This document shows, piece after piece, positions 63,090-64,000 of a stretch of 64,000 nt of DNA (position 1 is its first letter; each line of letters begins with the position of its first letter). A program made the position numbers and the translations under genes. The notes beneath the pieces were generated by a model. It did no database searches and was not told the DNA's origin. It was given only the letters and a program-made list of their open reading frames with translations. The stretch comes from Escherichia phage Turkey3. The DNA lies in sequence record PQ471515.1; one strand, given 5' to 3'.

Positions 63090-63614
63090 ATGTCGAAGAA
63101 GGATGCTTCGAAGAAAAAACAATCAGTACATTTCAGTACTGGAAAAGATAACTGGACTACTCCAAAGGATTTCTTTGAAGATTTGGATGAACTCTGGGAA
63201 TTTACACTAGATGCAGCATGTGTTAAAGAAACAGCATTGTGTGATAATTTCTTTACACCAGAAGATAATTCACTTGAACAGGACTGGGGAAACAATATCG
63301 TGTGGCTCAACCCACCGTACAGTGATTTGAAAACGTGGTTATCTAAGGCAGTTGATGCATATAACAAAGGTGCTACAGTACTGATTCTCGTACCATCAAG
63401 AACTGATACTATTGCGTTCCAGGACTATGCGTCTAAGTTATGCGACTGTATTTGTTTTATAAAAGGTCGCTTAAAGTTCGGTATCCCTGAAGAACCAGAT
63501 AAAAAGACGGATAGTGCTCCATTCCCTAGTTGTTTAATAGTACTGGATAAGTATTTGACTCCAGCTAAAATCAACTATCTTAAATCTATTGGTCAGGTGA
63601 TGAAGAACATATGA
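63090..63614 (+). CDS. DNA N6-adenine methyltransferase (phage Dam-like)
   Basis: NPPY catalytic motif (NIVWLNPPYSD) in typical context; RBS AAGGAAA. Confidence 0.7.
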   Translation: MSKKDASKKKQSVHFSTGKDNWTTPKDFFEDLDELWEFTLDAACVKETALCDNFFTPEDNSLEQDWGNNIVWLNPPYSDLKTWLSKAVDAYNKGATVLILVPSRTDTIAFQDYASKLCDCICFIKGRLKFGIPEEPDKKTDSAPFPSCLIVLDKYLTPAKINYLKSIGQVMKNI

Positions 63615-64000
63615 AAGAAACATGCGTAGTGACATTCGGAAGAATTAACCCAGTACATCGTGGTCATGGTTTAGTATTTGAAAAAGCTCAAGCACTACAA
63701 GAACAGTACAATGCGGATTTGAAAATATTCCTTAGCACCAGTACTGATGCCGTCAAAAACCCATTACCTCCTGAACTGAAAATGTACTATACAGAAGGAT
63801 TTTACCCATCTGTACAAGAAAATATCTATACAGAAGATAATCTGTTTGATATAATGAGAGAACTGGATGGAAAGTACTTAGATGTTCTTTTCATATGTGG
63901 TTCAGACAGACTTGAACCATTCCAAAAAACGCTTGACACGTACAATGGGAAGTTATATAATTTTTGTTCAATCAAGGCAGTTCAAGCTGGAATTGATCGA
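63611..64000 (+). CDS. nucleotidyltransferase, HxGH family (NadM/NMN adenylyltransferase-like), 3' partial
   Basis: N-terminal TFGRINPVHRGH matches (T/H)xGH nucleotidyltransferase motif; ATGA overlap; runs off window end. Confidence 0.5.
   Translation, partial: MKETCVVTFGRINPVHRGHGLVFEKAQALQEQYNADLKIFLSTSTDAVKNPLPPELKMYYTEGFYPSVQENIYTEDNLFDIMRELDGKYLDVLFICGSDRLEPFQKTLDTYNGKLYNFCSIKAVQAGIDR

Follow-up and report, generated by a model that had tools for sequence, protein, structure and literature searches.

At the 3′ end of a 64,000-nucleotide stretch of Escherichia phage Turkey3 (PQ471515.1; this whole stretch is here called the window) lie two adjoining genes on the + strand, one for a Dam-like methyltransferase and one for a nucleotidyltransferase (NTase). 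The first gene (63090–63614) encodes a 174-residue orphan N6-adenine methyltransferase of Pfam family PF05869, the phage T1/VT2 'Dam' family, with catalytic motif IV, NPPY, at residues 74–77 (63309–63320). The second (63611–64000) encodes an NTase of the HIGH superfamily (phrog_3041/395), whose HxGH nucleotide-binding motif, H16-R-G-H19 within GRINPVHRGHG, falls at 63656–63667. The two genes share an ATGA start/stop overlap (63611–63614) that is compatible with translational coupling and is also present in relatives. An earlier note on this DNA, referred to below as the original prediction, had correctly placed the start at 63090, identified both motifs and recognized that the NTase runs past the window: its first 130 codons are open to position 64000, and in 98%-identical relatives the full-length gene is 534 nt long and encodes 177 residues, including a C-terminal SSTQMR motif (residues 136–141).

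The 1.6 kb around this gene pair is 96.6–98.3% identical at the nucleotide level to Escherichia phages EC.P1, WPEC3, Ecwhy_1, fEgEco12 and vB_Ec-M-J, and ~83% identical to PBECO4, 121Q and related phages. The 96–98% identity to Asteriusvirus genomes identifies the window as Asteriusvirus DNA, and thus as part of a Rak2-like jumbo myovirus of coliphage type. In the near-identical published genomes the two genes are labelled 'DNA methyltransferase' and 'cytidyltransferase'. Both genes are thus already annotated, and the finding as such is already known. The E-values of the profile matches exclude chance open reading frames (ORFs) in both cases. As a whole, the locus is probably best explained as an ordinary orphan PF05869 methyltransferase and a phage-specific HIGH-superfamily NTase that stands outside any NAD-salvage module, both within an Asteriusvirus gene block.

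The family assignment of the methyltransferase is secure. The protein matches PF05869 with an E-value of 5.4e-32 and 111.2 bits (gathering cut-off 28.1) across profile positions 7–153 of 169, and also matches phrog_111 'DNA methyltransferase' (E 3.9e-56) and the PADLOC orphan methyltransferase model (E 2.8e-35). Its 466 homologues are all PF05869 proteins, mostly of 140–200 residues. In a 44-sequence alignment it retains all 18 invariant columns (W22, P25, F38, D41, L62, W66, N74, P76, L100, P102, R104, T107, G126, R127, F130, A143, P144 and P146), which fall among the conserved motifs WxTP, FxLDxA, NPPY, LxPxRTDT, GRLKF and APFPS. Within NPPY, N74 and P76 are invariant across the 44 homologues, and P75 and Y77 are at least 90% conserved. 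A single-sequence search of PDB sequences gave no match. The protein has a class I (Rossmann-like) S-adenosylmethionine-dependent methyltransferase fold, forming a single catalytic domain with no separate target-recognition domain. Family membership, invariant residues and fold together bear out the claim of a Dam-like N6-adenine methyltransferase, and within a family already known from phages the protein is unremarkable.

Affinities of the nucleotidyltransferase

The NTase is placed firmly in phrog_3041/phrog_395, with an E-value of 6e-40 to phrog_3041 'cytidyltransferase'. Its Pfam matches, to FAD_syn (E 0.002) and CTP_transf_like (E 0.012), are below threshold, and it does not reach the curated NMNAT models (TIGR00482, 18.4 bits against a required 112.45; NF000840, 16.5 against 150). 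Profile searches of the two proteins upheld the methyltransferase and failed to confirm an NMNAT. No PADLOC model matches the NTase, and neither phmmer nor a 13-sequence family profile found a match among PDB sequences up to E = 10. A broader family profile matched NMNAT, PPAT, NadD and TmcAL with equally weak scores (E ~1.5e-4 or worse). The HxGH and SxTxxR motifs are both present, the latter as SSTQMR in the full-length ortholog, and mark the HIGH superfamily rather than NMNAT specifically.

In a confident AlphaFold (AF2) model of the NTase (pLDDT 88.7), PPAT/CoaD structures are the top Foldseek matches, with TM scores of 0.60–0.65, and PPAT is structurally as close as NMNAT. True cytidylyltransferases (GCT, CCT, Fom1) score no higher than 9.5. 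A profile-profile comparison by hhalign with the NadM domain of phage CBB protein CBB_113 gave 75% probability and an E-value of 2.6e-5, pairing GRxNPxHxGH with GRFQMAHSGH, KNPL with KNPF, and SSTQMR with NSTEMR. Judged from its modelled fold and its motifs, the NTase is a stand-alone, phage-specific branch of the HIGH (HxGH...SxTxxR) superfamily on the adenylyltransferase side, which comprises NMNAT/NadM, NaMNAT and PPAT. This position makes 'cytidyltransferase' a doubtful name. The NTase nevertheless stands outside any characterized family, and its likeness to NMNAT and PPAT is remote. It is 13–21% identical to NadM-type NMNATs (MJ0541, PDB 1f9a; NadM-Nudix, PDB 2qjt; CBB_113), from which it also differs in having no Nudix domain and in not lying beside NAMPT, and 13–20% identical to PPAT/CoaD, with E-values no better than 5e-4. 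No other gene of the coenzyme A pathway is found in its neighborhood. Of the proposal that the NTase resembles NadM-type NMNAT, what survives is this distant relationship, visible in the HxGH motif and the hhalign match, and not membership of the NMNAT equivalog families.

The protein is instead a direct member, with no difference in kind, of the phage 'cytitidyltransferase' family (PHROG 3041/395; P-SSM4_155, RaK2_00448, CBB_73). It is similar to these proteins over its full length and has their motifs GRxNPxHxGH, KNPL, GSDR, YNG..YNF and SxTxMR. Identity is 54–99% to Rak2-like orthologs and 30–37% over the full length to cyanophage proteins. The family name probably misstates the nucleotide, true cytidylyltransferases being structurally more distant. 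An exhaustive HMMER profile search with the family returned 3429 representative clusters, of which 2253 have E-values below 1e-10. Among cultured phages the NTase occurs in 565 records, ~460 of which are T4-like cyanophages, with pelagiphage HTVC008M and the Rak2-like jumbo phages among the others. The function of the cyanophage 'cytitidyltransferase' has been stated to be unclear (PMC9146016). A literature search on that name found nothing, and neither the jumbo-phage NAD paper (PMC11662467) nor the Sharanji paper mentions the NTase gene.

Among the top 150 homologues, over half form the N-terminal domain of a protein longer than 500 residues (500–1200 residues; P0040, P0044 and P0106 in our set are examples). 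Sixty-four long homologues were scanned, of which 13 contain DUF5824 and five a Zeta-toxin/AAA_33-like P-loop kinase. The kinase–NTase fusions recall the architectures of NadR and coenzyme A synthase.

The modelled fold suggests that the NTase would transfer AMP from ATP onto a phosphorylated small molecule, for which nicotinamide mononucleotide (NMN) or nicotinic acid mononucleotide (NaMN) is, tentatively, the leading candidate. Such an NMN/NaMN adenylyltransferase might act alone, for example in regenerating NAD from the NMN that is freed by an NAD-dependent DNA ligase during replication. We regard this as possible but doubtful. It would fit the marine T4-like phages, where the NTase gene sits inside a replication and recombination block in the order UvsX, gp41 helicase, RNase H, an ORF of undescribed function, NTase. 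Against it, PPAT is an equally close relative, the ligase of Asteriusvirus is ATP-dependent, and the conserved neighbor of the NTase in the marine phages is a DUF6267 protein and not an NAD enzyme.

The DUF6267 protein of the marine T4-like phages has 410–430 residues, and its gene adjoins or lies near that of the NTase inside the UvsX–helicase block (7128–8363 in locus L003, 4763–6004 in L016 and 4712–6001 in L017), with a stop/start overlap in loci L016–L018. This pairing of two uncharacterized genes recurs among these phages, and no PF05869 gene accompanies it. DUF6267 has no relative in the PDB. A tblastn search with DUF6267 and DUF6433, the marine-phage neighbors of the NTase, matched neither the window nor the Rak2-like loci.

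The methyltransferase and the AGTACT motif

Outside the Rak2-like clade the methyltransferase has its closest relatives in phages of Staphylococcus and Lactococcus, at 45–47% identity. Phage T1 Dam (gp20), which also belongs to PF05869 (236 bits), is 31% identical over residues 19–121 (E 2e-17). M.EcoT1Dam and M.EcoVT2Dam are reported to be G-m6A-TC DNA methylases (PMC4996451, PMC6602927), and because these PF05869 relatives methylate GATC in DNA, DNA adenine methylation is the best-supported activity for the Turkey3 enzyme. By analogy with them, the methyltransferase would methylate adenines in the phage DNA during infection, in the service of restriction evasion or regulation. It shares with these enzymes (PF05869/TIGR01712) the Pfam family, the N-terminal WxTP, FxLDxA and NPPY motifs, a small size, and the condition of an orphan, phage-encoded gene; no endonuclease is evident next to it. 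However, T1 Dam has 237 residues to its 174, T1-like enzymes align with only the N-terminal 60% of the protein, and the C-terminal third is unaligned, so that GATC specificity is not transferable. Given this partial match, the 45–47% identity of the closest relatives, and the fact that transfer of a recognition motif between methyltransferases is usually trusted only above ~80% identity, the target sequence is not inferable from homology. GATC itself is under-represented in the window, with 142 sites against 200 expected (0.71 of expectation). Hia5, Hin1523 and Nma1821, adenine methylases without sequence specificity, were considered as PF05869 kin and dropped, as they are published as E. coli/T4 Dam-like (alpha-class) enzymes.

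The window is pervaded by the palindrome AGTACT. The over-representation claimed in the original prediction is real: there are 264 sites in the 64 kb, compared with 18.3 ± 4.4 in dinucleotide-preserving shuffles; expectations range over 18–21, and relative to base composition the excess is ~12-fold. All three reading frames contain sites, with a ~2-fold enrichment in non-coding DNA; site density is ~6.5 per kb at 1–22230 and ~4 per kb at 38000–64000. In a comparison with PBECO4, which is 85% identical to the window, 34 of 43 AGTACT sites are kept, against an all-hexamer background of 47% (p = 1.9e-5), and AGTACT is under purifying selection. The enrichment is 8–13-fold in every Rak2-like genus sampled (RaK2, Munch, CBB, Kaldavass, pEa_SNUABM_12, vB_Ec-M-J) and is absent in marine T4-like phages. 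A literature search on AGTACT in jumbo or Rak2-like phages found no report of the motif. Other palindromes are avoided: of the 64 palindromic hexamers, 26 do not occur anywhere in the 64 kb, where base composition predicts 1.6 such absences, and the missing ones include GGATCC, CTGCAG, GAGCTC, GTCGAC, CTCGAG, GGTACC and CCATGG. Restriction-site avoidance in the window is thus very strong.

Within 1–22 kb, pairs of AGTACT sites 20–24 bp apart flank the −35 and extended −10 elements of sigma-70-like promoters (for example 6182–6207, 6967–6992, 9073–9100, 10872–10897, 12550–12577, 14351–14376 and 20251–20278). The first site of a pair abuts the −35 element (AGTACT-TGCAAT or AGTACTA-TTGACA) and the second abuts the extended −10 element (AGTAC-TG-TATAAT), and a AAGGGGAG ribosome-binding site often follows downstream. 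These promoters have the appearance of a repeated early-promoter family into which AGTACT is built.

Two regions depart from this pattern. There is almost no AGTACT at 22.2–27.9 kb, and at 30–38 kb (30000–38200) there is none at all; in the latter region AGTACA occurs 45 times instead, always on the + (coding) strand, and TGTACT hardly at all. Across the window AGTACA outnumbers TGTACT by 119 to 35. This asymmetry, together with the restriction to the + strand at 30–38 kb, suggests that the underlying signal may be a strand-specific AGTAC(T/A) rather than the palindrome. A separate feature, at ~23057–29521, is a run of ~30 packed + strand ORFs of 70–110 residues (mostly 70–85), which resembles a tandem array of small genes that may be paralogs. 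This array largely coincides with the AGTACT-poor segment at 22.2–27.9 kb.

The methyltransferase could be the enzyme that writes N6-methyladenine (m6A) at AGTACT, as a phage self-mark or an epigenetic switch, although we think this unlikely. The PF05869 enzyme of the Rak2-like phages, with its C-terminal, target-contacting part diverged, would on this account methylate the AGTACT adenine and so write a genome-wide epigenetic mark, serving as a self-label or as a timing switch for early promoters; that fuller version we likewise hold to be improbable. The presence of 264 AGTACT sites while 26 of 64 palindromic hexamers are missing argues for it, since a protecting modification would make sense of a motif that is enriched amid palindrome avoidance. 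Further points in its favor are the enrichment of the motif in each Rak2-like genus that has the methyltransferase and its absence from the marine T4-like phages that have none, the conservation of the sites relative to PBECO4, the placing of paired sites around the −35 and −10 elements of early sigma-70-like promoters, and the dissimilarity between the C-terminal third of the enzyme and that of GATC-specific T1 Dam. However, the co-occurrence of motif and methylase amounts to a single clade-level phylogenetic event, and the characterized PF05869 members methylate GATC. Protection from restriction would moreover account for tolerance of the sites and not for their 12-fold enrichment. Other phage-encoded methyltransferases, including an N4-cytosine methyltransferase, could modify AGTACT, and the cognate enzyme M.ScaI is an N4-methylcytosine methylase.

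A further alternative, which we consider very improbable, is that the methyltransferase is a PCIF1-like RNA adenine-N6 methylase, perhaps acting with the neighboring NMNAT/PPAT-like enzyme on adenosine-containing RNA 5′ ends (NAD or dephospho-CoA caps). Iyer et al. 2021 (PMC7824862) described AMM43637.1 as the small Dam closest to PCIF1 and proposed that it may methylate RNA. AMM43637.1 is CBB_72, the ortholog of the window methyltransferase, and it adjoins CBB_73, the ortholog of the NTase. We also find a fold likeness between the methyltransferase and the PCIF1 catalytic domain, independently reproducing their statement. The lack of a separate DNA-recognition domain is in keeping with an RNA substrate, as is the adenylyltransferase-like character of the adjoining gene, joined by a stop/start overlap. 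Set against these observations, T1 Dam and VT2 Dam of the same Pfam family are experimentally established DNA GATC methylases, so the PCIF1 likeness may merely mirror the absence of a solved PF05869 structure. The identity to PCIF1/CAPAM, the cap-specific mRNA adenosine-N6 methyltransferase (PDB 6irx), is 15%. The solved PCIF1 chain has 482 residues, its helical and WW parts are its own, and the helical cap-binding domain is absent from the 174-residue single-domain phage protein. Outside the Rak2-like clade, moreover, the methyltransferase and NTase families are unlinked. An RNA 5′-end module composed of a PCIF1-like methylase and an NMNAT/PPAT-like enzyme is imaginable at most.

Gene layout and the NAD-salvage question

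The gene pair would form the 3′ part of a three-gene block on the + strand, preceded by a terminator and a sigma-70-like promoter. The first gene of the block (62531–63073) encodes a co-oriented 180-residue protein (phrog_16210, function undescribed) with no match in Pfam or PADLOC, and directly precedes the methyltransferase in all Rak2-like genera sampled. Upstream, the gene at 60990–61847 is followed by a terminator-like hairpin of the intrinsic type (61876–61904, + strand), with a 12-bp stem and a T run, which would delimit the unit on its upstream side; phage Munch has an annotated terminator in the corresponding position. The ~620 bp between this strong hairpin and the Dam block (61905–62530) is non-coding and contains the candidate sigma-70-like promoter (62441–62469, + strand; TTGAAT, a 17-nt spacer and TATAAT) in front of the three genes, with an AGTACT at 62431 just 5′ of its −35 element. 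A gap of 640–740 bp is kept at this place in RaK2, Munch, Kaldavass, pEa_SNUABM_12, CBB and PBECO4. Rfam and tRNA scans of the region gave no match above noise, and none from Rfam within the gap.

The order '175–200-residue ORF, Dam, NTase, ~95-residue ORF' is kept in all Rak2-like genera sampled, and the Dam and NTase genes overlap or lie a few bases apart even where the NTases have diverged to 34–40% identity. Their adjacency holds in the same six phages in which the upstream gap is kept. Since the flanking genes are syntenic too, this adjacency reflects an inherited block. More than 2000 phage genomes encode a PF05869 protein but not the NTase. We do not infer a shared pathway from a block that is inherited and from families that occur apart elsewhere, and functional coupling argued from adjacency alone was rejected on the same grounds of syntenic flanks and families unlinked outside the clade.

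The original prediction had placed the NTase in an NAD-salvage module and suggested a NadV-like partner downstream. Rak2-like phages do carry NAD-salvage genes (PMC5259590). Sister genera of Asteriusvirus (CBB/GAP32, Serratia phage BF and the pEa_SNUABM phages, Munch-like phages, RaK2/K64-1, and EJP2) encode a 365-residue NadM-Nudix NMNAT together with NAMPT, in a module that lies ~22 kb downstream of the Dam–NTase pair in RaK2, Munch, CBB, Kaldavass and pEa_SNUABM_12, where the small NTase is also kept. In Asteriusvirus neither partner was found. No NadV/NAMPT gene follows the NTase within 8 kb in vB_Ec-M-J and fEgEco12, within 12 kb in PBECO4, or in the 69.5–105 kb region of vB_Ec-M-J; the 41 kb downstream in this closest annotated relative contains no NAMPT or NadM-Nudix gene, and neither does the window. 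Searches by tblastn with the CBB NadM-Nudix and NAMPT proteins likewise gave no match in the window or the Asteriusvirus loci. This absence covers the window and 52–105 kb of the relatives, a part of the whole genome. At the syntenic dCMP deaminase–Sir2/PhoH site (vB_Ec-M-J 69.5–105 kb compared with CBB 53–60 kb), Asteriusvirus is without the module and keeps Sir2 and a stand-alone Nudix hydrolase gene. In addition, the phages that carry the NTase in the greatest numbers, those of Synechococcus, are not among the ten commonest organism names in searches for NAMPT or NadM-Nudix. The coexistence of a separate module with the small NTase in the sister genera, and the fact that its cyanophage carriers do not figure among the phages frequently found with NAMPT or NadM-Nudix, indicate that the NMNAT of the known phage NAD module is a protein other than the small NTase. 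That the NTase is the NadM-type NMNAT of such a module, with NadV just past the window, is therefore the least probable of the alternatives: the hhalign match to the CBB_113 NadM domain, the automatic annotation by JGI of a few homologues as 'nicotinic acid mononucleotide adenylyltransferase' and the existence of salvage genes in Rak2-like phages are outweighed by the missing partners, the different location of the sister phages' module, the concentration of the family in T4-like cyanophages (~460 of 565 records), the wide margin by which the NMNAT equivalog models are missed and the equal structural closeness of PPAT.

We therefore return to an ordinary PF05869 methyltransferase and a phage-specific NTase within an Asteriusvirus block. 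Three points weigh against this account. The methyltransferase narrowly misses the cut-off of TIGR01712, the NCBIfam phage_N6A_met equivalog model (91.1 bits against 97.05), and for this reason functional equivalence (GATC) to the HP1/VT2-type enzyme is not asserted. That DNA rather than RNA is its substrate is something we infer, from a nearest characterized methyltransferase that is 31% identical and differs in its C-terminal third. Finally, the candidate promoter at 62441–62469 is a match to consensus only.

The analysis has consequences for annotation. In the records PP777464.1, MH791411.1, MK773491.1 and NC_019443.1 wrong names are spreading, with 'ribonucleotide reductase A' or 'NrdB' standing for the NTase and 'type I restriction-modification system methyltransferase subunit' for the PF05869 enzyme. 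These names, like 'cytidyltransferase', are poor ones for the genes of the close relatives and should be corrected, and the NAD-salvage reading of the NTase should not be propagated.

As it stands, the gene pair is of little import for the biology of these phages. The orphan NTase family is worth following as a lead: it is very large (more than 3400 representative clusters), near-universal in T4-like cyanophages, and an orphan as to substrate. Greater interest attaches to AGTACT as a lead: this unexplained motif runs through the genomes of the Rak2-like jumbo phages, and the methylase is one candidate for its writer.

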